In this document: positions 2,433-62,604 of the stretch, one piece after another
Layout of the letters: the number at the start of each line of letters is the position of its first letter
How positions within the stretch are numbered: position 1 is the stretch's first letter
Origin: Candidatus Moraniibacteriota bacterium
GTDB taxonomy: Bacteria; Patescibacteriota; Minisyncoccia; Moranbacterales; GWC2-37-73
DNA length: 64,000 nt
Assembly: GCA_003507445.1 (NCBI GenBank)
Contig: DNVR01000019.1
Span: forward strand, 206,132 to 270,131
Direction of reading: 5' to 3'
The notes under the pieces: model-generated
What the model was told of the DNA's origin: nothing
What the model saw: the letters and a program-made list of their open reading frames with translations, nothing else
Databases searched by the model: none
Made by a program: the position numbers and the translations under genes

Positions 2433-2558
2433 ATGCACATCTTTGCGGAGGACCGTCCTTGGGAATTTCCTGCGGGTTTTTATTTGTGTTGGCTTGAGTT
2501 ATGGCTAGTTGGATGATATTATAAAATCAGTTTAAAAACCTTAATATATGATAAAAAT

Positions 2559-3293
2559 ATGTTTAAAGACAAGGTGGTTGTTGTGACTGGGGCATCAAGT
2601 GGGATTGGAGCTGAAACAGCTTTGGCTTTTGCAAAAGAAGGTGCAAATCTTGTTATTACATACAAAGATAACAAGGTGGGAGCAGAAGAAGTTGCTGCCA
2701 AAATAATCCAAGCAGGAGGCGGAGCTATTGTTGTTCAAGCTGATTTGATCAATGAGTCAGATGCTAAGAATGTTATTGAAAAGGCTAAATCAGAATATGG
2801 TAAAGTTGATATTTTAGTTAATAACGCTGGCAGATATATTGATGGCGATGAATGGAATGGGAATTCTGAAATTTGGACAAAAAGCCTTTTGCAAAATCTT
2901 GTTTCAGTGATGAGTGTCTCAAAATATGCAATCGAAATTTTTCAGCAGCAAAAATCAGGAGTAATTGTGAACATTTCGTCGCGATATTCAACAGACGGAC
3001 AATATGATGCATTGGCTTATGCGGCGGCAAAAGCTGGCGTGGTAAACATAACTCAAGCATATGCAAAATTACTCGCACCATTTGGAAGGGCTAATGCAAT
3101 TTCTCCTGGAGCAGTTAATACTGGCTATTGGCTGCGAGCGCCGAAAGAAGAATTGGAAAAAAATTTGGCCGCAATCCCATCTGGAAAACTGGTTGAGCCG
3201 AAAGAAGTTGCTGAAAAAGTTTTATTCTTAGCTTCAGACGAATCTTCAAATATAAATGGGCAAAATATTTTTATAAATAATATTATAAAATAA
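2559..3293 (+). CDS. SDR-family oxidoreductase (3-oxoacyl-ACP reductase-like)
   Basis: 244 aa; TGASSGIG Rossmann motif, NNAG, YxxxK (YAAAK) catalytic motif. Confidence 0.8.
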   Translation: MFKDKVVVVTGASSGIGAETALAFAKEGANLVITYKDNKVGAEEVAAKIIQAGGGAIVVQADLINESDAKNVIEKAKSEYGKVDILVNNAGRYIDGDEWNGNSEIWTKSLLQNLVSVMSVSKYAIEIFQQQKSGVIVNISSRYSTDGQYDALAYAAAKAGVVNITQAYAKLLAPFGRANAISPGAVNTGYWLRAPKEELEKNLAAIPSGKLVEPKEVAEKVLFLASDESSNINGQNIFINNIIK

Positions 3294-8351: not shown

Positions 8352-8918
8352 ATGGGCATAATTGATGACATTAAAGCATGGATGGGTAAACATCGGATTT
8401 TCGCAACTCTTGTTGTTCTGACACTGGTTGTCGTCCTTGGCGGCGGAACCTTCCGGGTCCTGTTTTGTACCTTTGTAGACAAGCACGAAACATGCTTCAT
8501 CTACGACAGAATTTCCGGTCAGGTAGAAATTCCGGATCGAACAGGCTACATCGTCCGCGCGCCAATCATTTATTCGGTGCACACGCTTGATACGCGTCCG
8601 TACCAGCTTTCTATCACTGCCAACATTGGGTCTCCTGGTACGTCTAGCGTTTCTTCGCGGGTTCTTAATGCCAAGCTGGTCAGGTTTAATCCCAAGGGCA
8701 TATCAACATTCATTTCCTGGCATGGACGTGACGCCGGCGACAAATTGGCAAATTTGCTGGAAATCATGAAGTGTTATGCCTTCGACAAAGAGGGAGGAAG
8801 GGATTGCCCGTTCATAACAGTTCTTAATGAAATCAATCCCAGTCAAACCCCCTCCCAGCTGGGGGATACCACTGCTTCCTCGATTACACCCAGTGTTCAT
8901 ACTGGAGCAAAGCCATGA
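8352..8918 (+). CDS. hypothetical membrane-anchored protein, paralog 1 (higher GC, ~50%)
   Basis: 188 aa; N-terminal TM helix; shares DTRP...LNAKLVRFN / KCYAFDKEGGRDCPFITVLNE blocks with downstream paralog; weak resemblance to SPFH N-terminal region. Confidence 0.5.
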   Translation: MGIIDDIKAWMGKHRIFATLVVLTLVVVLGGGTFRVLFCTFVDKHETCFIYDRISGQVEIPDRTGYIVRAPIIYSVHTLDTRPYQLSITANIGSPGTSSVSSRVLNAKLVRFNPKGISTFISWHGRDAGDKLANLLEIMKCYAFDKEGGRDCPFITVLNEINPSQTPSQLGDTTASSITPSVHTGAKP

Positions 8919-9394
8919 AGGGACTCGACGATATTCTGACGAAACATCGACTGAGGATACCAGTCATTATCTCAAGTGTCATATTCATCGTTGCACTCTT
9001 CTTCTATCTCTGTTTTCTAAACTATAATGAACCGACGGAGATTGGAATAGCTAGAAACGTGTTCTCTGGAGAAGCATGGTCACAGGAAGGTGGGGGTTGG
9101 CATCGTACGGCGCCGTGGGTGTTTGTGTCTAAGATCGACACGAGACCTATGAAAGTTGGTGTGACGACTTCCGGACACGGATTCAGTGCTAAACTTGTGC
9201 AGTTCAACACCAGGGAATGGCAGGAGTTCATCATGACAGAGGGCTTCCGCTACTGGTGGTGGGACAATCGCATCTCTTTCAACTTCGGATACAGTGAAGA
9301 ATATCGCGGGATGAAGGACATTCTGCGCGGCTACGCTTACAGCGTGAAACGCTACCCCTTCATAACAATACTGGAAGAGTATCAGACACAATAA
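8915..9394 (+). CDS. hypothetical membrane-anchored protein, paralog 2
   Basis: 159 aa; ATGA start/stop overlap with upstream gene; N-terminal TM; DTRP...SAKLVQFN / RGYAYSVKRYPFITILEE blocks paralogous to 8352 gene. Confidence 0.5.
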   Translation: MKGLDDILTKHRLRIPVIISSVIFIVALFFYLCFLNYNEPTEIGIARNVFSGEAWSQEGGGWHRTAPWVFVSKIDTRPMKVGVTTSGHGFSAKLVQFNTREWQEFIMTEGFRYWWWDNRISFNFGYSEEYRGMKDILRGYAYSVKRYPFITILEEYQTQ

Positions 9395-9471
9395 CAACAT
9401 CTTGAAAATGCAGGATTATACTGGCATGTTCATCTCACACGAGAAGAATGTGTCAGTTTTTTTATTTCATT

Positions 9472-9565
9472 AAAGTCATTACTTGCTCCAATCTTGTCTC
9501 AACAACATACCAATTTTTAAGTATATTAGTTCGAAGTGCGTACTTTAGCCCGTACAGACTAAAAT
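9472..9565. repeat. island-boundary conserved block, copy B
   Basis: AAAGTCATTACTTGCTCCAATCTTGTCTCAACAACATACCAATTTTT...GTTCGAAGTGCGTACTTTAGC; then hairpin/T-run 9565-9592. Confidence 0.7.
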
Positions 9566-9736
9566 AAGTCTTTACAGAGCCTTATTTTTTGTATAGAGAG
9601 ATTGGAATTATAACTGTGATATAATATTAATATAAATTTATCTTTAATAAGATAAACAAAAAATCGCGTGATACATTTTTGAAATTTTTGACGCAAATTA
9701 GGTTGAGCTGGTATAACAATTTTTAGAAATAAAAAT

Positions 9737-10699
9737 ATGGCAAAGAGATTATTTGAGTCGGTAGGTAATGACGTTTCCGCTATTACTAAGGGATCACAAC
9801 CGGAAGAAATAAAAAAAATTACAAAAGAAGCGGGGGAAGATTCTAGGAAATTATTATTTGAGGAGATGGAATCTGATATTGAAAAAATTGCTCCCAGTCT
9901 CGTTGATATTTGCGAAAAAGTATTAGAAGAAAAACCAGATATAATAATTTTTCTTGATAAGAGCGCACGTATTTTTGCGGGTCCAATTAAAAAGTACCTT
10001 GGAGATTCAACTGAAGGCAAAAAAGATGTTTTGCCGAAATTTTATTTTTATAATAATGATACAATTAACCAAGAAATTACCAAATATAGAGGTGGAGTTT
10101 TTTGTGCTCAGGTTGATTTAGATCTGGAAAAGAAAATTGCCGATGAATTCAAAATATTGACAGGAAAGAAAATTTTTATAGTTGATGAAAATTATTCCTC
10201 TGGAAAGGTTTTACGTATGTGGATAGAAGTTAATAATGTGCTTAATGGTCTTGATCCGGAAACACAAATTCATTTCTTTGCTTTAACAAGAGATGAACAA
10301 GAAAGAGAGTATAAAGAGAGAGTTAAATTTTTTAAAAATGAAACATTAGAAAAGGCTGTTGCTGAGCCAAATTTTAAGTTTACAATTTATGACGCCGTAA
10401 AAACAAATGTTTTTTCTAAATCTGATCATTTTCAATATGTTCAAGATCGTGACTTAAACGGTAGTGTTATATCTGAAGGAATTAACAATTCTTTGAAAAG
10501 AAGCAAAATTGGTATAAATTCTCCCTTGGATTTGTCTAGTGCGAAGACAGATGATACACATCACACAAGGACAGGTACGTATGAAGAACGTGAAGAAGCA
10601 AATACTCGTATATTTGAAGCTGTAAAAATAGCGAAACAACGAACCTATGAAAAGATGAAGGAATTTTCAAATAATAAAAAAAATATTATTGGCACCTAA
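9737..10699 (+). CDS. hypothetical protein with phosphoribosyltransferase-like fold motifs
   Basis: 320 aa; IIIFLDKSARIFAGPI and KIFIVDENYSSGKVL resemble type I PRTase PRPP-binding loop; low GC unlike neighbours. Confidence 0.4.
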   Translation: MAKRLFESVGNDVSAITKGSQPEEIKKITKEAGEDSRKLLFEEMESDIEKIAPSLVDICEKVLEEKPDIIIFLDKSARIFAGPIKKYLGDSTEGKKDVLPKFYFYNNDTINQEITKYRGGVFCAQVDLDLEKKIADEFKILTGKKIFIVDENYSSGKVLRMWIEVNNVLNGLDPETQIHFFALTRDEQEREYKERVKFFKNETLEKAVAEPNFKFTIYDAVKTNVFSKSDHFQYVQDRDLNGSVISEGINNSLKRSKIGINSPLDLSSAKTDDTHHTRTGTYEEREEANTRIFEAVKIAKQRTYEKMKEFSNNKKNIIGT

Positions 10700-10730
10700 A
10701 TTTCTAGCAGTTGAGTATTATTGTTTTATC

Positions 10731-10808
10731 AAAGCCTTTGCTCGCTCTAATCTTGCCTCAACAACATCCCAATTTTCGATGATATCGGTACCCTAGCTTG
10801 TGCATGCT
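10731..10808. repeat. island-boundary conserved block, copy C (10-nt deletion relative to others)
   Basis: AAAGCCTTTGCTCGCTCTAATCTTGCCTCAACAACATCCCAATTTTCGATGATATCGGTACCCTAGC; followed by terminator-like hairpin 10811-10838 and TTGACA box (12-nt spacer to TATGCA) 10877-10905. Confidence 0.7.
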
Positions 10809-10984
10809 AAACAGAACTCAGTTGAACTCTGTTTTTGTATAGAGAAATGAGCCTTTGAACAAAAAATTTAATAAATATTGACATTTTGCTTTGGATATGC
10901 AAATATTTGATATTCCTTAACAATTGTAAGAAGTGTTCATTTTTTTCTGATAATATCGACTATATCAAGACAAAGGAGAATGCC

Positions 10985-11623
10985 ATGGCTGACAACAGAG
11001 AGCATGATAGAGATTTCCTTAAACACGTAGAAATAATTAAGCCACCTTTTGCTGACCTTGCGAATGTGGACAGAAATGCCGGATGCAATTCGTTTCCTGC
11101 TTGGGTCGGCGAAGCATGCGTTGGACTTATCTTTGATCCTGCAAGACTTGCTCCTGATGAAAAAAGAATCTCAATTCTTCCTGATGACTGGATACTGGCA
11201 CTCATGAGACAGGATCCCCAAGATCTTTCGAACATGGCTGCGCTTTGGATGCATTACAATGTGTTTTGGGGCGGGGGAATAAGTACTTCTATTGAAAATA
11301 TTAAAATTCTTGGAAAGGGGAGATTAATGGAGAAAGGTCAGAAATGTTATCTGCCGACAATACACATGAAAATCAGGTCTGCAGGTTCGGTAAATGCTTT
11401 CATTGACGGGGATGTCTGTGACGTCGATGAGTATGAGATTATCGAACTGATAGGTCGGCGTCTTCCTCCTCTTGAATATGAACATGCTTGCTTGCCGCTT
11501 GATACTCCACGGATGGATAGAGGTATGTCCAAGTGGGAAGTGATTCACAAGGAAGGAAATATTATAGACGAGTTTGCGGTACGTGCTCTTCAGAAAATGG
11601 ATGTTGAAATTATTTGCGTTTGA
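10985..11623 (+). CDS. hypothetical protein (mid/high GC)
   Basis: 212 aa from MADNREHD (ATG 10985) preceded by AAGGAGA RBS; the longer ORF from 10886 runs through the promoter-like repeat. Confidence 0.45.
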   Translation: MADNREHDRDFLKHVEIIKPPFADLANVDRNAGCNSFPAWVGEACVGLIFDPARLAPDEKRISILPDDWILALMRQDPQDLSNMAALWMHYNVFWGGGISTSIENIKILGKGRLMEKGQKCYLPTIHMKIRSAGSVNAFIDGDVCDVDEYEIIELIGRRLPPLEYEHACLPLDTPRMDRGMSKWEVIHKEGNIIDEFAVRALQKMDVEIICV

Positions 11624-11659
11624 TAGGATTCTTAAGTCTAGAGAGAAAAGGAGGATTTT

Positions 11660-11839
11660 ATGGACAAGGTGGAAGCGGATGTGTTGCATCCCAGTCATGT
11701 CACTCGTATTTCGGACGCATCTTCTTTTGATGAGATATGCATTAATTGTGGTGCGACCGATAATCCTCTTGGACTGAGGGGTGAAGGTATATGGGGAGAG
11801 TTGGCCAAGCCATGCTCCAAAGCTGCTAAGACGCAATAA
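11660..11839 (+). CDS. small Cys-containing hypothetical protein (59 aa)
   Basis: not in ORF track (<60 aa); strong RBS AAAGGAGGA 7 nt upstream; CINCG...PCSK; followed by canonical terminator. Confidence 0.4.
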   Translation: MDKVEADVLHPSHVTRISDASSFDEICINCGATDNPLGLRGEGIWGELAKPCSKAAKTQ

Positions 11840-11864
11840 AAAGACATAACGGCAAATGCCATGG

Positions 11865-11899
11865 AGACTCGCAAATCGAAAGATTTGCGAGTCTTTTTT
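11865..11899 (+). terminator. rho-independent terminator
   Basis: gagactcgcaaatc-gaaa-gatttgcgagtc followed by TTTTTT. Confidence 0.65.
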
Positions 11900-11908
11900 C
11901 ATTTCATT

Positions 11909-11993
11909 AAAGTTTTTGCGCGCTCCAATCTTGTCTCAACAACATCCCAATTTTCTATTATATCGGTTCGAAGCGTGTACCCTAGCTCTGTGC
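11909..11993. repeat. island-boundary conserved block, copy D
   Basis: AAAGTTTTTGCGCGCTCCAATCTTGTCTCAACAACATCCCAATTTTCTATTATATCGGTTCGAAGCGTGTACCCTAGC; followed by the ddl promoter (TATAAT at ~12036). Confidence 0.7.
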
Positions 11994-12073
11994 AGGTGAT
12001 AAGATGCATCAATGCGATGTGTTCTGTGTTTTTTGGTGGTATAATGGGGTTATAAGCATATTATATAAAACAT

Positions 12074-13057
12074 ATGAAAAAGGTAGGCTTGTTTTTTGGG
12101 GGCTTGGGAAATGAAGCGGAAGTTTCGGTAATTTCAGCAAGGAACGTTGCTGAAAATTTTGATCATAAAAAATATGAGCTTGTTTTGGTATATTGGAATA
12201 AAAATGGATATTTTTATATCGTGAAAAATTTTGCTGAAATAAAAAATCCAAAGAAGAAAATTAAGGAAGAGGATTTCGCAAAATATTTTGACATTGCACT
12301 GCTAATGACTCATGGGCGATATGGAGAAGATGGAATTTTGCAGGGAATTCTTGAAAGATTTAGTGTTAAATATTGCGGTTGTCGATTGTTGTCATCAGCT
12401 TTGTGTATGGATAAGGCAGTTTGTAAGAGATTTCTGGAAGGGTATAAAATTAAACAATCAAAATTTGAAGTTATTGATTTAAATATCTTAGGAAAAAAAG
12501 AAATAGGAAATGTGATTAAAAAAATTAAGAAAGAATTTAAACTGCCAATGTTTGTGAAGCCCGCAAATTCAGGATCATCAGTTGGAATTACAAAAATTGA
12601 AAAAATAAGTCAATTGGAAAAAGGTATTAAAATAGCAGCAATGCATGATCAAAAGATTGTTGTTGAAGAAGGTGTCTTGGGAATGAGGGAGGTGGAAGTT
12701 GGAGTTTTGGGAAACAACTTGTTGAATGTGTCGCGACCAGGAGAGTTGATTTTGTCCAAAGATTTTTATGATTTTGATGAAAAATATAAAAACAATAAAA
12801 CAGAAATTAAAATTCCTGCAAAGCTTGCTGCCAAACAAGAAAAGGAGATTGTGCGTCTAGCTGAAAAAATTTATCACCTTTGTGATTGCAGGGGTTTTTC
12901 AAGGCTGGATTTCTTTGTGACAAAAAATAAAGTTTATTTTAATGAAATAAACACCCTGCCTGGCTTTACCCAATTTTCTATGTATCCACAGCTTATGATG
13001 AATAAAGGTATGAGTTATAAGGAGCTTGTAAATAAGATAATAGAGTTGGCGCTTTAA
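12074..13057 (+). CDS. ddl: D-alanine--D-alanine ligase
   Basis: 327 aa; N-terminal GG...EVS motif, ATP-grasp core (KPANSGSSVGI), C-terminal NEINTLPG. Confidence 0.85.
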   Translation: MKKVGLFFGGLGNEAEVSVISARNVAENFDHKKYELVLVYWNKNGYFYIVKNFAEIKNPKKKIKEEDFAKYFDIALLMTHGRYGEDGILQGILERFSVKYCGCRLLSSALCMDKAVCKRFLEGYKIKQSKFEVIDLNILGKKEIGNVIKKIKKEFKLPMFVKPANSGSSVGITKIEKISQLEKGIKIAAMHDQKIVVEEGVLGMREVEVGVLGNNLLNVSRPGELILSKDFYDFDEKYKNNKTEIKIPAKLAAKQEKEIVRLAEKIYHLCDCRGFSRLDFFVTKNKVYFNEINTLPGFTQFSMYPQLMMNKGMSYKELVNKIIELAL

Positions 13058-33793: not shown

Positions 33794-34765
33794 ATGACAC
33801 AAAAAATAATACAAGATATGGCCGTCAGTTTGAATATTCATCCAATTCATCTGCGGGTTTTTATGTCGAACTTTAAAAATGTATCAGCTGAAAATATCGT
33901 ATCGGCATACAAAGAATTCAAAGATGAAAATCCAAAACCGTTTGTAAAGTGGGTTGGAGGAAAAAGGCAATTGCTCAAACAATTTAGAGAGAGAGATTTG
34001 TATCCGCCCTATGATTTTGATCCGAAAACTGCAACTTACTTTGAGCCTTTTGTCGGTGGTGGAGCAATGTTTTTTGATTTGTTACCAAAAAAAGCTGTTT
34101 TGTCTGATATGAATGCCGAATTGGTAACAACTTATAATGTTATTAAAAATGACGTTGAAGGATTAATAAAAAAATTAAAAGAATATCAAAAGAAAAATAA
34201 TAAAGAATATTTTCTCAAAGTTCGTGCGCAAGATTTTAAAAAACTTTCCGATGTTGATGTTGCTGCTCGTTTTATATATCTAAATAGAACTTGTTTCAAT
34301 GGAATGTTTCGCGTTAATGGTAGTGGTCAATTTAATGTTCCATTTGGGGATAACAAGAATCCGCTTATTTGTGATGAAGAAAATTTGCGGAAAGCTCATG
34401 ATGCAATGAAGTATACTAAAATCTTGCATCAGGACTATGGAAAAGTTTTAGAAAAAGCAAAAAAAGGAGATTTTGTTTATTTTGATCCACCTTATTGTCC
34501 GGTTAACGCAACGTCTAGTTTTACGAGTTATACCAAGGAGGGATTTCTTGAAAAACAACAAATAGAATTGAAGGATGCCTTTATGGAGCTCCACAAGAGA
34601 GGTTGCTATGTTATGCTTTCAAATTCTGATACGCCATTTATCAATGAATTATATTCTGGACTAGGCAAAAAAATAAAAATTCACACTGTTGATGCTGGGC
34701 GTTCTATTAATTCAAAGGGAACAGGAAGAGGAAAAATTAAGGAGGTTGTCGTGATAAATTATTAA
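33794..34765 (+). CDS. dam: DNA adenine methyltransferase (Dam/D12 class N6-adenine MTase)
   Basis: 323 aa; KWVGGKRQLL, EPFVGGGA, YLNRTCFNGMFRVN, catalytic DPPY (VYFDPPYCP). Confidence 0.85.
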   Translation: MTQKIIQDMAVSLNIHPIHLRVFMSNFKNVSAENIVSAYKEFKDENPKPFVKWVGGKRQLLKQFRERDLYPPYDFDPKTATYFEPFVGGGAMFFDLLPKKAVLSDMNAELVTTYNVIKNDVEGLIKKLKEYQKKNNKEYFLKVRAQDFKKLSDVDVAARFIYLNRTCFNGMFRVNGSGQFNVPFGDNKNPLICDEENLRKAHDAMKYTKILHQDYGKVLEKAKKGDFVYFDPPYCPVNATSSFTSYTKEGFLEKQQIELKDAFMELHKRGCYVMLSNSDTPFINELYSGLGKKIKIHTVDAGRSINSKGTGRGKIKEVVVINY

Positions 34766-34774
34766 AAAATAATT

Positions 34775-36481
34775 ATGGCAAATTTTACAAAAACAGAGCC
34801 TTATACATTTGCAGCCCTTTGTGATTCTTTTAAAATGTTTAAGATACCAAATTTTCAGAGACCATATAAATGGACAAATAAAAATATCCAAGAATTTTGG
34901 AGCTCAATTATTTCAAATCAGAGTCCATATTTCATTGGGAATATAGTTGCAGTAAGTGACGAAAGTCTTCTTGTTATTGATGGGCAACAGAGATTAACAA
35001 CAATTAATTTGTTGTTAATAGCCCTAAGGGATACATATTCAAATATAAAAGTAAAAAAAAGCGATAAAACTAAAGTCAGTAGAACTATTGCAAGAATAGA
35101 TAAATATCTGAAGGATGATGATCTTTCGAAATCGGTAGAGTCTGAATATAAACGATTAGAACTTGGCAAAGATATGTATCAGAAAATTTTCAACATGTTG
35201 GTTGATAACGAAATCGATAACATTGATATAAAAAAGTTAACTGATAACCAAAAACGATTAATAAACAACTATGAAATATTAAAAAAATTTATACTATCAG
35301 AAATTAAGGGATCAGAGCTGAATAGTTTGGATGGTATTTTAAACAAAGTTTTAAATTTGCAGTTTATTGTTATTGTTTGTGCAACTGAAAATGATATATA
35401 TGGTATTTTCGAAGGATTTAATTCTACAGGATTGGGCTTGTCGGTAGCAGATCTTGTAAAAAATTCTATTTTAAAAGGAAGTGCGAGAGATACAAAAATG
35501 CAATCATTAATTGAGGAATTATGGAATGAAATGGAGTTAATGTTTGATGAAACAATTGCTTCAAAATTTCCTAAATTTCTTAGGCACCAATGGATTTCAG
35601 TTTATGGCCATGTTTCTATGTCCAACCTTTATAGGGAAATAAAGTCTGAGAAGATTGATAATAAGACACCGCAGATAATTAAGGAATATGTGGAATCAGT
35701 TTTATTTGATGCTAAGATATATCTTGGGATGCTATATTGGAAACACGAAAAAAACCTGGACTTGCCAAAAGATATATTGGAAGAAATATTTAAATTCAGA
35801 TTTTTGCAAAATGACCAGGTTTATGAGGTGTTGTTGACTTATCATCGGGCATTTAAAGAAAAAAGGATAACCCAATCTTTTTTTAAAAAATTTCTTAAAC
35901 GACTCTGGATTTTTACTGTTAGAGCTAGGTTCGTATCTGTAAATCCTTCTAAATATGAAAAAATCTTTTCAACACAATGTAAAGAAATTTACGAATGCAA
36001 AAATATTGAAGAAGTTTCTGCTGAAACTGAACGTTTTTTTTCAAAATTAAAAAAACTTGTTTCATCTGATGAGCAGTTTGTTGAGAATTTTATTGCAGAT
36101 GTTAAGTATGGGAAGGATAATAAATTAATATCTCTAGCAATTTCAGACTTAATGAGTTATGATAATCCAGAAATAAGCATAAAAGAGCCAGAAATAGAAC
36201 ACATTTTACCTCAAGAACCTAAAAAATGGGGATTTGCCAAGAGTGAAGTAAAAGATTATGTTGATAAAATTGGAAATTTAACTTTATTATTTAGTGATTT
36301 TAATAAAAAAAATAGCAATGAAACCATGTCATTTAAAAAAGCTATATTTAAAAAATCAAAACTTAAGTTCAACGTTGATATAGCAGATAAATGGGGCGAT
36401 ATTTTCGTTAAAGACTTCAAGAATGCTATTGAGCGGAGAAGTATTGATATGACAAAAAGAATTGAAAAAATTTGGAAATAA
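34775..36481 (+). CDS. GmrSD-like type IV restriction enzyme (DUF262 N-terminal / DUF1524 HNH-like C-terminal)
   Basis: 568 aa; DUF262 DGQQRLTT motif, C-terminal His-Me finger EIEHILPQ...IGNLTLL. Confidence 0.8.
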   Translation: MANFTKTEPYTFAALCDSFKMFKIPNFQRPYKWTNKNIQEFWSSIISNQSPYFIGNIVAVSDESLLVIDGQQRLTTINLLLIALRDTYSNIKVKKSDKTKVSRTIARIDKYLKDDDLSKSVESEYKRLELGKDMYQKIFNMLVDNEIDNIDIKKLTDNQKRLINNYEILKKFILSEIKGSELNSLDGILNKVLNLQFIVIVCATENDIYGIFEGFNSTGLGLSVADLVKNSILKGSARDTKMQSLIEELWNEMELMFDETIASKFPKFLRHQWISVYGHVSMSNLYREIKSEKIDNKTPQIIKEYVESVLFDAKIYLGMLYWKHEKNLDLPKDILEEIFKFRFLQNDQVYEVLLTYHRAFKEKRITQSFFKKFLKRLWIFTVRARFVSVNPSKYEKIFSTQCKEIYECKNIEEVSAETERFFSKLKKLVSSDEQFVENFIADVKYGKDNKLISLAISDLMSYDNPEISIKEPEIEHILPQEPKKWGFAKSEVKDYVDKIGNLTLLFSDFNKKNSNETMSFKKAIFKKSKLKFNVDIADKWGDIFVKDFKNAIERRSIDMTKRIEKIWK

Positions 36482-37107
36482 ATTTTAAAAATATGAATAA
36501 TTACAATTTAAGATTACTTGATAACTCGGAGGTTATTAAATGGTGCTATGAGGGTGTTACGGATATTTCTTTGAAGAATACTGAAAGTGAAAAAAAATTA
36601 AAAGAATCAAAGGAGATAGAAAAAGAATGGGGCAATAGCGTTATGAATACCACAGATGGAAAGCAGTGGACAACTTTGCTTTGTCAAAATTTAGTCATGG
36701 AGGCACTTGTTAGGCTTGGTAGAAAAAATGTCAGACAAACTACTGCAAAAAAAAGTACTCTTAGGGATAAAAAATACGATCCAGATTTAGAATGTGACGA
36801 ATTTGTTTATGAGGTGAAGGGCAGAAGTTGGTCTACCCCTGGAACTGCTGGTGAAAAAATACTTGGAGTGCCCTTGAAATATGGTGAATTGCCACGTTTA
36901 TACAAAAAACCACTTCAAATAGTTTTGGTAGGATATCAGGAATATGAAGCTCGAGAAAAATTCGCTTTCGGTGATTTATTAGACAAAAATAATCAAACAA
37001 CTGAATTACGAGACAGCCTAGCTTTTTACAAGGAGCACAATATTGAATATGTTGCCTTTACAGATATTTTGAAAAAAATAGGTTTTGATTATGGCTGTTG
37101 GAATTAA
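36472..37107 (+). CDS. putative type II restriction endonuclease (PD-(D/E)xK)
   Basis: 211 aa; YDPDLECDEFVYEVKGR fits PD...ExK; immediately upstream of MTase; alternative start 36493. Confidence 0.45.
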   Translation: MEINFKNMNNYNLRLLDNSEVIKWCYEGVTDISLKNTESEKKLKESKEIEKEWGNSVMNTTDGKQWTTLLCQNLVMEALVRLGRKNVRQTTAKKSTLRDKKYDPDLECDEFVYEVKGRSWSTPGTAGEKILGVPLKYGELPRLYKKPLQIVLVGYQEYEAREKFAFGDLLDKNNQTTELRDSLAFYKEHNIEYVAFTDILKKIGFDYGCWN

Positions 37108-37122
37108 AGATGATTTAAAAAA

Positions 37123-37869
37123 ATGAAAACAAAAATAAAATTGCATCCAGATGAATTTGAAATGGAATGTACCACTGTGTGGTCATTCCCTAGGCGTGGA
37201 AACTGGGCAACACATAAATCAGATTGGCGAGGAAATTGGGCACCAGAAGTGGTGCGTAATTTAATCCTGCGTTACTCAAAGGAAAGCGATCACATTCTTG
37301 ATTGTATGATTGGCGGTGGAACAACCGCAATAGAGGCAAAAATATTAAATCGTCACATCACTTGTATTGATGTTAATGAAGAGGCACTAGAACGTACGAA
37401 AAAATCATTAGAATTTGAGGTTGAAAACAATTCCAAACAAAGAATAATGAAGTGCGACGCTCGCAATATGGCATTCATTAAAAATGAGGAAATAGATTTT
37501 GTTCTTACTCATCCACCGTATGTTGATATTATAAAGTATAGCGAAGGAAAAATTAAAGAAGATTTATCTGGCATTCATAGTCTGGATGAATTTTGTGATG
37601 AAATTGAAAAAGTTGCCAGTGAATTATTTCGCGTTTTGAAAAAAGGAAAATATTGTGCAATTTTGATGGGGGATACTAGAAGAGAAAAAATGTATCAACC
37701 GTTGGCCTTTAAGGTTATGGAACGATTTTTAAAACAAGGTTTTGTATTAAAAGAGGATATTATTAAAAAACAACATAACTGCAAAGCCACCGGCTTTTGG
37801 GTAAAACGTTCCCAAGAAAGTAATTTTCTCTTGATTATGCATGAGCATCTTTTTGTATTTCAGAAATGA
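37123..37869 (+). CDS. DNA methyltransferase (N4-C/N6-A, gamma-like motif order)
   Basis: 248 aa; motif I DCMIGGGTTAIEA precedes motif IV LTHPPY. Confidence 0.75.
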   Translation: MKTKIKLHPDEFEMECTTVWSFPRRGNWATHKSDWRGNWAPEVVRNLILRYSKESDHILDCMIGGGTTAIEAKILNRHITCIDVNEEALERTKKSLEFEVENNSKQRIMKCDARNMAFIKNEEIDFVLTHPPYVDIIKYSEGKIKEDLSGIHSLDEFCDEIEKVASELFRVLKKGKYCAILMGDTRREKMYQPLAFKVMERFLKQGFVLKEDIIKKQHNCKATGFWVKRSQESNFLLIMHEHLFVFQK

Positions 37870-60930: not shown

Positions 60931-61000
60931 GGTAGGGGTTGACCTTAATTTTTATATCAGATATAATTAACAGCGTTGACTTAATATTTCAAAAATGAGC

Positions 61001-61073
61001 GGGCACATAGCTCAGTTGGTAGAGCAGCGGCCTTTTAAGCCGATGGTCGGGGGTTCGAATCCCTCTGTGCCCA
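61001..61073 (+). tRNA. tRNA-Lys (anticodon UUU)
   Basis: manual fold: 7-bp acceptor GGGCACA/UGUGCCC, D-arm GCUC/GAGC, anticodon loop CUUUUAA, T-arm GGGGG-UUCGAAU-CCCUC, discriminator A; no encoded CCA. Confidence 0.9.
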
Positions 61074-61112
61074 CAAAAACGAAAATCCCTTTTGGGATTT
61101 TTTTGTTTTTGT
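61067..61112. repeat. 46-bp direct repeat 1 (tRNA-Lys 3' end + terminator hairpin)
   Basis: gtgcccacaaaaacgaaaatcccttttgggatttttttgtttttgt; identical copy at 61268-61313; followed by inverted tRNA fragment gcacagagggattcgaac (61113-61130). Confidence 0.7.
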
Positions 61113-61267
61113 GCACAGAGGGATTCGAACGGGCAGAAGCTAAGCAAGTTGACTTTCAGCAGAAAGGCAACGCAGCGTGCGTCGATGAATGCGAGGAATA
61201 CGAGCATTCAGCGCTGCCCAGGACAAGGAGCACGTGAGCGGCGGCGAACGAGCGACGCGCGCAGAGT

Positions 61268-61313
61268 GTGCCCACAAAAACGAAAATCCCTTTTGGGATT
61301 TTTTTGTTTTTGT
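61268..61313. repeat. 46-bp direct repeat 2 (att-like duplicate of tRNA-Lys 3' end + terminator)
   Basis: brackets a 155-bp GC-rich segment (61113-61267). Confidence 0.7.
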
Positions 61314-61396
61314 ACTAAACCAACACTTCTGGATTCTTTCTGATTTCTTTGCTATAATTCAAATATTAAGGGGCGATTATAAACATAAAAAATTCA

Positions 61397-61536
61397 CCCT
61401 GTTAAATAATTTTAAAAAATAGTAATTTTTTAAAATTAAGATTTGGGTGATAAGCAGCTTCTGTATTAGCATAAAAAAGCTTAAATTTGAATAAGTTGGT
61501 TCTATAGATGATAGACCCAAATCTTATTTAACAGGG
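61397..61536 (+). promoter_or_regulatory. long structured 5' leader (nested inverted repeats CCCTGTTAAAT...ATTTAACAGGG) upstream of lipoprotein gene
   Basis: 11-bp perfect arms 118 nt apart; inner arms aagatttgggt/acccaaatctt; 3' arm abuts ATG 61540. Confidence 0.4.
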
Positions 61537-61539
61537 TAA

Positions 61540-62604
61540 ATGATAAAAAAAATATTATTAGTCATTCCAATAATTGCAATGACAACTCTTCTTTCTGGTT
61601 GTAGTTTTGGCGAGAGTTTTACGCCAGCCAAGATTACAATGGAAAATGCCACTGTGATTAAAACTGAAGATGGTGGTGCAAGTTGGAATCCAAAAATAAG
61701 AATTGATGACAAAAAAACCATCTCGGGAGTGGATGTTTTATCAATGGCAATACACCCAAACAATCCAAATATAATTTATATCGGAACAATGTCTAATGGG
61801 TTGTTCGTTTCAAAGGATGCGGGAGAAAGTTGGACTGCAGTGGCATATCCTGGCAAAGCATATGGCTTGGTTTTTGATCCAGCAAATCCTGATGTGATGT
61901 ATGGCAGTGGTGTTTTCAATGGACGAGCAAAAATATTCAAACGACTTGCTGAGGGTCAAGAATGGAAAGAGGTTTATACTGAACCAGCAGATGGCACCGT
62001 CATTTCTTCACTTGCAATTAGCAAAGTTAATTCTAATATTCTTTATGCGGGAACAAATGCAGGGATTATTATAAAAACAACTGATGGCGGACAAACTTGG
62101 GTTAATTTGAAAATCAATCAAGACATCAACTCGCCAATCACGAGCATCGTTTTCGATCAGGCAAATGACCAACACGTGTTCTTTGCTCTTTTTCAAGAAG
62201 GAGTTTTGGAAACAAAAAATGCTGGAGCAACCATTGAAAATATCACTGATCAAATTGACACAAAAGGTAACACCACAAGCGTATATAGTCTTGTGGCTGA
62301 TCCATATTTGGGCGGAGTTGCATATGCTGGCACGGAAGCGGGAATTTTTCGCAGAAATGCGGATGGTTCTTGGAGTTCAATGAATTTGATTGAAAGTTCA
62401 AAAGCTTTTGCAATCAGATCAATTGCAGTAAATCCAAAAAATTCCAAGGAAATTATGTATTCTTCGGCTAAGGCGATTTATAAATCAACAGATGGTGGAG
62501 CAAAATGGGCAACATTTCAATTGGATACTGCCAAGGAAATTAGTATTTTGAAATATGATGTAACAGATCCTGCAAAAATTTATGCCGGACTTAGGAGTTT
62601 TTAA
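61540..62604 (+). CDS. BNR/Asp-box repeat (Ycf48-like beta-propeller) lipoprotein
   Basis: 354 aa; lipobox LLSGC; repeated DGG.sW motifs (TEDGGASWN, KDAGESWT, TTDGGQTWV, STDGGAKWA). Confidence 0.65.
   Translation: MIKKILLVIPIIAMTTLLSGCSFGESFTPAKITMENATVIKTEDGGASWNPKIRIDDKKTISGVDVLSMAIHPNNPNIIYIGTMSNGLFVSKDAGESWTAVAYPGKAYGLVFDPANPDVMYGSGVFNGRAKIFKRLAEGQEWKEVYTEPADGTVISSLAISKVNSNILYAGTNAGIIIKTTDGGQTWVNLKINQDINSPITSIVFDQANDQHVFFALFQEGVLETKNAGATIENITDQIDTKGNTTSVYSLVADPYLGGVAYAGTEAGIFRRNADGSWSSMNLIESSKAFAIRSIAVNPKNSKEIMYSSAKAIYKSTDGGAKWATFQLDTAKEISILKYDVTDPAKIYAGLRSF

Follow-up and report, generated by a model that had tools for sequence, protein, structure and literature searches.

A family of small structured non-coding cassettes, apparently mobile, behind the tRNA genes of Moranbacteria-type (CPR) bacteria

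Introduction

Genomic islands, prophages and CIMEs that integrate into tRNA genes insert at the 3' part or the T-loop of the gene, leaving an intact tRNA upstream and a partial 3' copy downstream, and serial insertions stack so that the older ones are pushed distally. MITEs and REP/BIME-type repeats are small, non-coding, multicopy and non-autonomous, with terminal inverted repeats and hairpins. Integron attC sites, the CTX-phage attP (IMEX) and the pdif modules of Acinetobacter form one-way arrays with long imperfect palindromes in which structure is kept over sequence. Group IIC (class C) introns are RNA-structured mobile elements that lie behind intrinsic terminators, in the direction of transcription and sometimes in tandem. 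Finally, tRNA-derived SINEs, MALAT1 mascRNA, the MHV68 TMERs, plant tRNA-snoRNA, tmRNA and YrlA are the tRNA-linked RNAs and mimics that ride on a tRNA promoter, or whose ends imitate the acceptor/T-stem helix recognised by tRNA-processing enzymes; SINEs additionally spread, with variable target duplications.

Here we analysed the tRNA-Lys locus of a stretch of DNA from a Candidatus Moraniibacteriota bacterium (the window, i.e. the whole 64-kb stretch) in the light of these systems. An earlier note, made from the letters of the window, had seen in this locus the att-site scar of an element integrated into the tRNA gene. We found that the locus carries one unit of an uncatalogued family of cassettes that lives behind many tRNA genes in Moranbacteria-type (CPR) bacteria, often in tandem. 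The cassette shares with each of the systems above the traits just named, although the use of the tRNA promoter and the minihelix-like ends are, in its case, what we propose.

Results

The tRNA-Lys locus of the window

The locus comprised the following features:

60939..60967, + strand: sigma-70-type promoter of the tRNA-Lys transcription unit, TTGACC-17-TATAAT, scoring 11/12
61001..61073, + strand: tRNA-Lys(UUU) gene, CCA not encoded (ARAGORN; Rfam tRNA model, 75.6 bits)
61066..61112, + strand: direct repeat copy 1, i.e. tRNA positions 66-73 and terminator T1 (hairpin at 61081-61102, then T-run)
61113..61130, + strand: IRL, an inverted copy of tRNA positions 53-70 and predicted 5' strand of the closing helix P0
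61131..61266, + strand: structured GC-rich core of 136 nt (covariance model R1, covariation, fold z-score)
61267..61313, + strand: direct repeat copy 2, i.e. the right copy of tRNA positions 66-73 and terminator T2 (hairpin at 61282-61303)

The unit of the window therefore spans 61113-61313. The two copies of the direct repeat (61066-61112 and 61267-61313) were 100% identical and separated by 154 nt; an exact repeat of 47 nt cannot arise by chance in 64 kb, so this one is not a chance match. The earlier note had reported a direct repeat of 46 bp, which was present but is 47 nt long and starts one base earlier, at 61066 and 61267. Its start coincided with the first base of the 3' acceptor strand of tRNA-Lys, and it spanned the discriminator, a terminator-like hairpin and a T-run. 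Both T1 and T2 consisted of a GC-containing hairpin of nine pairs followed by a T-run (TTGTTTTTGT tail), the arrangement of an intrinsic terminator.

The inverted fragment that the note had placed immediately behind the first copy was recovered letter for letter: GCACAGAGGGATTCGAAC (61113-61130) corresponds without a mismatch to the reverse complement of 61053-61070, a stretch that covers the T-loop, the 3' strand of the T-stem and five bases of the acceptor 3' strand. Together with T1 it formed a palindrome with 37-nt arms (86% complementary), continuous from tRNA position 53 through T1 to the IRL. The following segment, given in the note as about 135 bp at roughly 60% GC, measured 136 nt at 60.3% GC against 36.3% for the window, and it was the highest-GC island in all 64 kb.

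The promoter at 60939-60967 was the only good one 5' of the element, and it moves together with the tRNA in those relatives that have an inverted module. No consistent sigma-70 promoter belonging to the core itself was found across the copies. Two ORFs of 80 aa and 77 aa run across the region and are called only sometimes by gene callers; they had no Pfam match and overlie the covarying helices described below, so we agree with the note that they are spurious. A look-up of the 80-aa ORF for transcript-like contigs returned nothing new.

Searches for known elements

When the window locus was searched against Rfam 15 at E ≤ 10, the hits to the core stayed below one third of the gathering score and were weak chance matches; otherwise the locus gave the tRNA and chance hairpin matches over the tRNA-terminator palindrome. 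At gathering thresholds, 15 further loci yielded tRNAs only. BLAST of the insert against phages and plasmids gave chance-level matches (E of about 2-6), and a scan of viral contigs with the core pattern gave zero matches; the phage or integrative-element similarity for which the note had proposed a search did not materialise in these phage, plasmid and viral-contig sequences. Neither did the integrase for which it had proposed to look: no integrase, transposase or reverse transcriptase was present among about 45 window ORFs (nearly all those of at least 200 aa in the first 52.5 kb, together with two next to the locus) or among the Pfam-labelled genes from 53 kb on. The literature contained no description of such cassettes that we could find, which is weak evidence of absence.

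A family behind tRNA genes

A degenerate pattern taken from the most conserved part of the core served as the first probe and matched at 70 metagenome loci. We then built a covariance model, R1, from 26 sequences and searched the window and 79 loci with it; the metagenome and genome scans were one pass each. R1 gave 96 matches, 80 of them distinct, with scores of 24-183 bits and arrays of up to three copies. The window copy (61115-61277) was matched over the full model length (158 bits, E = 1.6e-39).

Most of the 91 tabulated copies (61) lay 5-371 nt downstream of a co-oriented tRNA gene, 10 were at locus edges, and 20, hereafter orphans, had no detectable tRNA within 700 nt. Several copies could occur per contig or genome bin. 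The host tRNAs were those for Lys, Gln, Glu, Pro, Gly, Tyr, Trp, Ser, Met, His, Leu and Asp (12 amino acids, 15 isoacceptors). The orphans retained an upstream terminator and a decayed piece resembling a tRNA 3' end; for two of them the matching tRNA was found 1.1 kb and 4 kb further upstream, beyond later-inserted DNA, which indicates that orphans are older cassettes displaced from their tRNA. One of these later insertions carries a large serine recombinase. At L137, a large serine-recombinase island adjoins tRNA-Pro and is a later, separate insertion.

The IRL proved to be the hallmark of this class of elements. Among 139 tRNA contexts, 38 had an IRL and a core, 15 an IRL with other cargo or a stub, 85 neither, and one a core without an IRL. 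Put differently, 38 of the 39 cores behind a tRNA had an IRL, and in 85 contexts both the IRL and an R1-detectable core were absent. The 15 IRL-only contexts contained other GC-rich cargo or a stub of 0-18 core bases, and at least three further cargo types occupied the same frame of IRL and right copy.

Anatomy of one unit and its tRNA-matched frame

The order of a unit was tRNA(1-73), T1, IRL, core, right copy and T2, with a short filler between T1 and IRL in some cases, a core of about 120-170 nt and a full unit of about 200 nt. Read as its reverse complement, the IRL corresponded to the tRNA from position 53 to position 63-73, and its last bases were ...TTCGAAC in every case. The core started with (G/C)GGCAG or GGTGGC at its 5' end and closed with a conserved 3' tail, GA(C/G)GCG-GA. 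Next came 'GGA' and the right copy, which repeats the local tRNA in direct orientation, starting at position 58 and running as far as the discriminator (73); in the clade of the window it started only at 65/66. IRL and right copy matched the local tRNA even where this had a rare T-loop variant (TCCGATT, TTCGAGT, TTCGACT or TTCAAAT). A direct copy of the last 12 nt of the tRNA lay downstream in 29 of the 139 tRNA contexts, whereas no genuine tRNA call had such a copy upstream. We also considered whether the IRL derives from an inverted copy of the entire tRNA, and ruled this out since the inverted copies always stop at tRNA positions 51-53.

T1 usually differs from T2 in the family. Their identity, and hence the 47-nt repeat, is peculiar to the clade of the window, where arrays repeat the whole block of 3' end, terminator and IRL (L019). 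The extent of the duplication varied by locus (8, 16, about 24 or 47 nt); given this variation and the usual difference between T1 and T2, no single classical insertion chemistry fits all copies. As T1 and T2 differ at most loci, the 47 bp are not an att core; of the att-site reading the duplicated tRNA 3' end stands, but the terminator half of the repeat is specific to the clade.

Fold and covariation of the core

The core of the window copy was divided into the following parts:

61131-61136 with 61214-61219, + strand: helix P1, GGGCAG with CUGCCC, 97% paired
61148-61157 with 61162-61171, + strand: helix P2, with an AGCA loop
61184-61194 with 61202-61212, + strand: helix P3, with a conserved A.G and tandem G.A
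61220-61229, + strand: junction AGGACAAGGA of the core
61230-61239 with 61244-61253, + strand: helix P4 of the core
61254-61266, + strand: tail of the core, GACGCG...

In the MAFFT alignment of 66 units, the helices were 81% paired (70% in shuffles) and 30 pairs changed on both sides. In the model-based alignment of the 80 distinct sequences, 82.7% of the cells paired, where shuffles gave 67.1% and sliding the partners gave 34-45%; this alignment was fitted to R1, and its structure counts lean toward the model that made it. Compensatory changes on both sides were detected in 35 of the 43 modelled pairs, in all four helices, and none of 500 shuffles reached any of five measures. P1 showed swaps from GC to CG, CG to UA and AU to GC, and P2 and P4 were variable hairpins in each of which 10 out of 10 pairs covaried. 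In P3 (GAUGAAUGC with GCAUUCAGC) the A.G was invariant, with the tandem G.A inside. Mutual information recovered the helices and added Watson-Crick pairing in three places: P4 is extended by one pair across a second tandem G.A, P2 is enclosed by a helix of 2 bp, and the tip of P3 gains a pair.

The folding strand is the tRNA-sense strand: G.U pairs outnumbered A.C pairs (123 vs 43), and the window core had a fold z-score of -4.24 in sense and -0.65 in antisense. Compensatory changes supporting a conserved fold, by which structured RNAs are generically recognised, are present in the core, and they would equally be expected of a folded single-stranded DNA site.

The helix predicted to close the structure, P0, joins the IRL to the right copy, in the family as GGGAUU with AAUCCC. 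In the window copy it amounts to only 5 bp, GCACA with UGUGC of the downstream copy. The right copy (tRNA 66-73) supplies the 3' strand of P0 and an unpaired CCA-like tail. The window IRL is also complementary to the tRNA itself (18/18), and the minimum free energy of the whole region prefers this long hairpin over P0.

Three further candidates were dropped. A pseudoknot of GCGUC with GACGC (HDV-like topology) contained many mismatches, and none of its pairs changed in a compensatory way. A gene resembling tmRNA or tRNA, considered for both strands, lacked a T-arm hairpin, both ARAGORN and Rfam were silent, and the acceptor-like closing stem of the window copy was not conserved where the host tRNA differs (L026). 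Finally, a short ORF with a Shine-Dalgarno motif (AAGGAG-GTG) was not conserved across subfamilies.

The core was closer between loci than the neighbouring gene was, with nucleotide identities of 92% vs 74% (L021) and 78% vs 59% (L082). Judged by these values, the core is more conserved than adjacent coding DNA, and it appears to be under purifying selection. We conclude with high confidence, from conservation and covariation, that the GC-rich segment is no scar: it is the conserved, full-length core of a family, and it looks functional. The note had wavered between a heavily deleted element and a very small one; the latter half fits a discrete, very small and tRNA-specific insertion, whereas the former, a heavily deleted prophage or island, does not.

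Relatives, copy number and movement

The gene downstream of the locus encodes a BNR/Ycf48-like protein, and the alignment of its homologues gave 80 loci from GTDB species representatives, in most of which tRNA-Lys lies upstream of this gene. The structure was identical in nine contigs that were found via both flanking proteins and had been assembled independently, from nine samples of groundwater, and a MAG from a different study (L169; neighbouring gene 96% identical) had the same core and repeat. This rules out an assembly artefact. The cassette of the window is fixed within its species-level lineage.

The number of full copies in relatives ranged from zero to two, and a core was absent from many tRNA-Lys loci. 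L023 and L042, which are distant from the window, had no copy and no trace; L020 (equivalent to L002), L024 and L027 had no copy and kept the inverted fragment, with or without the first few core bases. One copy was present in the window, L169, L026, L037 and L170, and two or more tandem, diverged copies in L019, L021 and L171, with a third, truncated unit in L021. Presence and copy number thus vary at this locus, where invariance in all relatives, named in the earlier note as the sign of an ancient nonmobile rearrangement, was not observed. The nearest unoccupied locus, L002/L020 (L002 is from the same sample as the contig of the window), keeps the tRNA, the terminator, the IRL and GGGC, and is without the rest of the core, the second repeat and about 10 nt of flank. 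The retained IRL and GGGC together with the missing flank mark it as a deletion derivative and not a clean empty site, of which none was found in a close relative.

Cores that were 90-92% identical lay behind different tRNAs (Tyr/Lys, Pro/Lys, Gln/Lys and Glu/Trp), with the frame locally matched each time. Two loci, apparently of one genome bin, had tRNA-Lys and tRNA-Gln cores about 93% identical with unrelated flanks. One tRNA-Tyr locus and tRNA-Lys loci had in common the terminator stem and a 12-nt filler, GTTAGTATTGAA, from which it follows that T1, IRL and core can travel together. Since cores this similar lie behind different tRNAs, each in a frame that fits its own host, the element moves; on this comparison the cassette family is apparently mobile between tRNA genes and builds tandem arrays.

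We also searched for an enzyme linked to this movement. Clustering of the flanking ORFs at 70 loci gave no linked enzyme, only synteny clusters and small GIY-YIG genes, and the latter were rejected as the linked enzyme given that they lie upstream of tRNAs with or without a cassette. The ORFs upstream of orphan copies included no recurrent recombinase, and no recombinase was enriched near other copies. No autonomous relative or trans-acting enzyme was found in the flanks and window ORFs scanned.

Discussion

A proposed non-autonomous cassette with a probable RNA core

We consider it reasonably probable that 61113-61313 is an intact unit of a family of mobile cassettes which are small, non-coding and non-autonomous, live in the tRNA trailers of Moranbacteria-type CPR bacteria and have a core that is probably RNA. 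In the modelled structure, the IRL pairs with the direct copy (P0) and so closes a multi-helix junction; by this pairing the ends of the element would resemble the coaxial T-stem/acceptor minihelix that the neighbouring tRNA forms. That the fold acts as RNA is suggested, with moderate confidence, by the sequence evidence. Since the element is without a promoter of its own, its RNA would be made from the tRNA promoter by read-through, which we assume, of T1, a sequence that looks like a terminator and would have to be a weak one. The tRNA-processing enzymes that recognise the minihelix may then trim the RNA, and P0 with its acceptor-like extension may recruit them.

Insertion would take place in or next to the T-loop or the 3' end, exploiting the universally conserved T-arm sequence, and would leave an intact tRNA upstream and a displaced or duplicated tRNA 3' end with the native terminator downstream. 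The mobilising enzyme would be supplied in trans. The order of the unit is that expected if a small circle integrates at position 57/58 of the T-loop, and it would equally be expected of a copying process, by target priming or template switching, that duplicates the tRNA 3' end to a variable extent. The palindrome continuous from position 53 through T1 to the IRL, and the constant stop at 51-53, suggest that snap-back or quasi-palindrome correction at the terminator and T-arm would help to create the frame and keep it matched locally. The perfect 47-nt repeat may reflect duplication or homogenisation of the block of tRNA 3' end and terminator in the arrays of this clade. Our confidence in any one route of movement is low.

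A more far-reaching reading, which we put forward tentatively and think on the whole doubtful, is a new bacterial RNA device: either a SINE-like selfish element moving through an RNA or template-switch intermediate, or a tRNA-directed ribozyme or riboregulator. The antisense IRL and the right copy as a decoy would engage tRNA genes or transcripts, and the trailers would act as an integron-like platform for several structured-RNA cargos.

Other explanations

The main rival to the RNA cassette is a DNA-level one, a folded single-strand recombination site. The cassette would fold as single-stranded DNA, the stem of IRL and right copy would mimic the T-arm/acceptor segment for a site-specific recombinase of the host or of foreign origin, after the manner of CTX-phage attP hairpins, integron attC sites or Xer-dependent modules, and the RNA would be irrelevant. 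Much of the anatomy agrees with it: the order tRNA(1-73), T1, IRL, core, tRNA(58-73), T2 is the product expected when a circle of about 200 nt integrates at 57/58, and the need for IRL and right copy to match the target tRNA is explained. So is the growth of arrays at the tRNA-proximal side with the older copies distal (the orphans behind a later serine-recombinase island), and so is the strand bias, as G.T is tolerated in single-stranded DNA; the other cargo families use the same frame. Yet no recombinase was linked to the cassettes in the flanks scanned, and the T-loop is broken at the right junction, which reads GGA followed by AAT instead of TTCGAAT. The core, moreover, is of a type usual in RNA (tandem sheared G.A, GNRA-type loops, conserved junction purines and four helices of variable length), and cores that are 91% identical have wholly different, tRNA-specific ends, a change that a carried attP cannot undergo by point mutation. 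We therefore regard the DNA-level cassette as unlikely.

Less likely again is a stationary small-RNA gene co-transcribed with the tRNA, its other copies being ancient paralogues and the repeats tandem duplications under gene conversion. Such a gene would agree with the covarying fold, the sense orientation, the dependence on the tRNA promoter and the fixation in the species-level lineage of the window, and gene conversion between repeats 200 nt apart would explain why the 47-nt repeat is perfect. It is difficult to reconcile with close relatives that have zero to two full copies and with the many tRNA-Lys loci that have none; cores at least 90% identical behind four pairs of tRNA species, next to neighbouring genes that are far more diverged, the terminator and filler GTTAGTATTGAA common to tRNA-Tyr and tRNA-Lys loci, and the frequency of stubs and arrays also speak against it.

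Could the structure be a functionless by-product of replication error, arising by snap-back or template switching at the palindromic terminator and T-arm with capture of filler DNA? The continuous 37-nt-arm palindrome, which runs from tRNA position 53 via the terminator loop to the IRL, the T-loop TTCGAA that is itself palindromic, and the inverted copies that always stop at 51-53 are all compatible with this origin, which would also yield T1 = T2 as in the window. However, the supposed filler is a conserved family with 35 compensatory pairs and a conservation above that of adjacent coding DNA, and the same junctions recur behind 12 kinds of tRNA. The covariation largely refutes replication error, leaving it a very small probability as an account of the whole, although it may explain the first origin of the IRL frame.

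We give still less weight to the scar of a prophage, ICE or island in tRNA-Lys that was almost wholly deleted, with the repeats as attL and attR. A duplicated tRNA 3' end does flank the insert, and tRNA genes are real integration hot spots in these genomes, as illustrated by the serine-recombinase island at tRNA-Pro in L137. A remnant of this kind would not be expected to keep the same length and architecture in 96 copies under purifying selection; furthermore, there was no phage, plasmid or viral similarity and no integrase found nearby, and the repeat, which includes the terminator, differs in length from one locus to another. The scar is thus already contradicted.

An assembly or amplification chimera, to which one might attribute the several short contigs that break inside the repeat, has next to no probability given the identical structure in nine independent assemblies and an unrelated MAG and the homologous copies at more than 80 other loci.

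Significance

If the RNA cassette is confirmed, it would represent a widespread, uncatalogued, structured non-coding element in the tiny, streamlined and poorly understood genomes of CPR/Patescibacteria, tied to tRNA genes and building its closing helix from copies of the host tRNA. It would add a new RNA motif with unusually rich covariation and possibly a new means of moving or converting genes by way of the T-arm, the most conserved sequence in any genome. It would also explain the spurious "hypothetical proteins" and the contig breaks behind tRNA genes in CPR assemblies, and its arrays, stubs and flipped tRNA modules would provide a marker of genome dynamics in organisms thought to be poor in mobile elements.

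Comparison with known systems

Compared with tRNA-integrated islands and CIMEs, the cassette is only about 200 nt long, has no coding capacity and no integrase-bearing relative that shares its ends. It carries the T-arm once more in inverted orientation, its ends fit the particular tRNA behind which it lies, and its body is a conserved structured motif and not leftover island DNA.

The differences from the small repeats are of another kind. Unlike MITEs and REP/BIME-type repeats, the cassette targets tRNA trailers exclusively and always in one orientation, and its body is a multi-helix covarying core instead of a simple palindrome. The inverted repeats of MITEs are their own termini, whereas those of the cassette are copies of the target and change with the local tRNA; there is also no target duplication of fixed length, the duplicated stretch ranging from 8 to 47 nt.

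A hairpin mimicking a chromosomal site, as in CTX-type and attC systems, would explain the frame of the cassette. Unlike attC, CTX and pdif, however, the cassette is not associated with IntI or Xer, its structured part is the cargo, and the outer boxes GGGATTCGAAC and GGAAATCCC miss the GTTRRRY/RYYYAAC consensus of attC. Group IIC introns differ in size and fold: the core of the cassette has 120-170 nt, against at least 600 nt, and four helices with no domain V/VI, and there was neither an Rfam intron match nor a reverse transcriptase ORF.

As for the tRNA mimics, the cassette forms neither a T-arm hairpin nor a cloverleaf, and there was no match by ARAGORN or by the Rfam models of tRNA, tmRNA and YrlA; its mimicry consists of an antisense and a sense copy of the 3' strand of its neighbour. 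In contrast to SINEs, it is bacterial and has no known reverse transcriptase partner. The cassette behaves like a tRNA-integrating element that has been reduced to a non-coding core, and is in this sense CIME-like or MITE-like, but it departs from each of these classes in the very features that define them.

Orientation of the tRNA-Lys module and its effect on assemblies

The tRNA-Lys module, which comprises promoter, tRNA, terminator and cassettes (the non-coding units in the tRNA trailer), was compared between the window (60939-61313) and other loci, among them L019, L022, L023, L029 and L170. Both orientations were found among relatives with the same two flanking genes on either side (plus in about 34 loci and minus in about 13), so the module has been inverted repeatedly. 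The inversion breakpoints lie close against the module ends (GTTGAC... / ...CAAC).

Several short assemblies of the window population (L008, L009, L010, L015 and L018) break off, as contig ends, inside the tRNA, the repeat or the core, and the cassette thus fragments assemblies. Spurious gene calls of 77-80 aa were also drawn to it.

Other cargo and an island beside the cassettes

The frame of an inverted T-arm copy and a direct tRNA 3' copy also encloses GC-rich, hairpin-rich cargo unrelated to the window-type core, at the following loci:

L082:2590-2715, other cargo
L146:320-440, other cargo
L029 and L127, other cargo, type C
L025 and L049, other cargo, type D
L158:5060-5160, other cargo, type E

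Such cargo and the window-type core sometimes occurred in one array, and the Rfam search gave no matches to these other cargo sequences.

At the locus L137, an island of about 4 kb (8600-12640) stands between tRNA-Pro and an older cassette, the right copy of which is still Pro-type. A 528-aa ORF (L137:11013-12599) adjoins the tRNA-Pro and, from a reading of its N-terminal motifs, is a putative large serine recombinase.

Genes and partial copies on the tRNA 5' side

In the stretches listed here, small GIY-YIG genes (PF01541, about 85-100 aa) were co-oriented with a tRNA gene that they preceded by 5-80 nt:

L027:2440-2860, GIY-YIG gene
L114:1380-1860, GIY-YIG gene
L100:400-840, GIY-YIG gene
L109:1317-1666, GIY-YIG gene
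L162:2430-2997, GIY-YIG gene
11 more loci, GIY-YIG gene

Often the gene is itself preceded by a pseudo-copy of that tRNA in disrupted form; the one in L027 is truncated at the T-loop, and those in L027 and L100 have a GC-rich hairpin around the anticodon. These genes look like a second, independent mobile gene targeting tRNAs; the 64-kb window contains no tRNA-linked GIY-YIG gene.

Between the GIY-YIG gene and tRNA-Pro of L162, a motif of about 28 nt is present in three tandem copies (2520-2740, minus strand). Within the motif, the 5' acceptor strand of tRNA-Pro recurs in palindromic form (GGGGCGTGCCCC), so partial tRNA copies build up 5' of tRNAs too.

Defence genes and an AT-rich insertion in the window

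One small defence island was found, surrounded by housekeeping genes in the rest of the window:

33794-37866, D12-class adenine methyltransferase, GmrSD-type restriction endonuclease and N6/N4 methylase

About 150 nt of AT-rich DNA (61390-61541) form an insertion that occurs only once within the window, is bounded by 18-nt inverted repeats (ATTCACCCTGTTAAATAA / TTATTTAACAGGGTAAAT) and stops at the start codon of the BNR-like gene. It is missing in L169, a relative with a 96% identical neighbouring gene, and in L002, a locus that keeps a deletion derivative of the cassette, and looks like a MITE.
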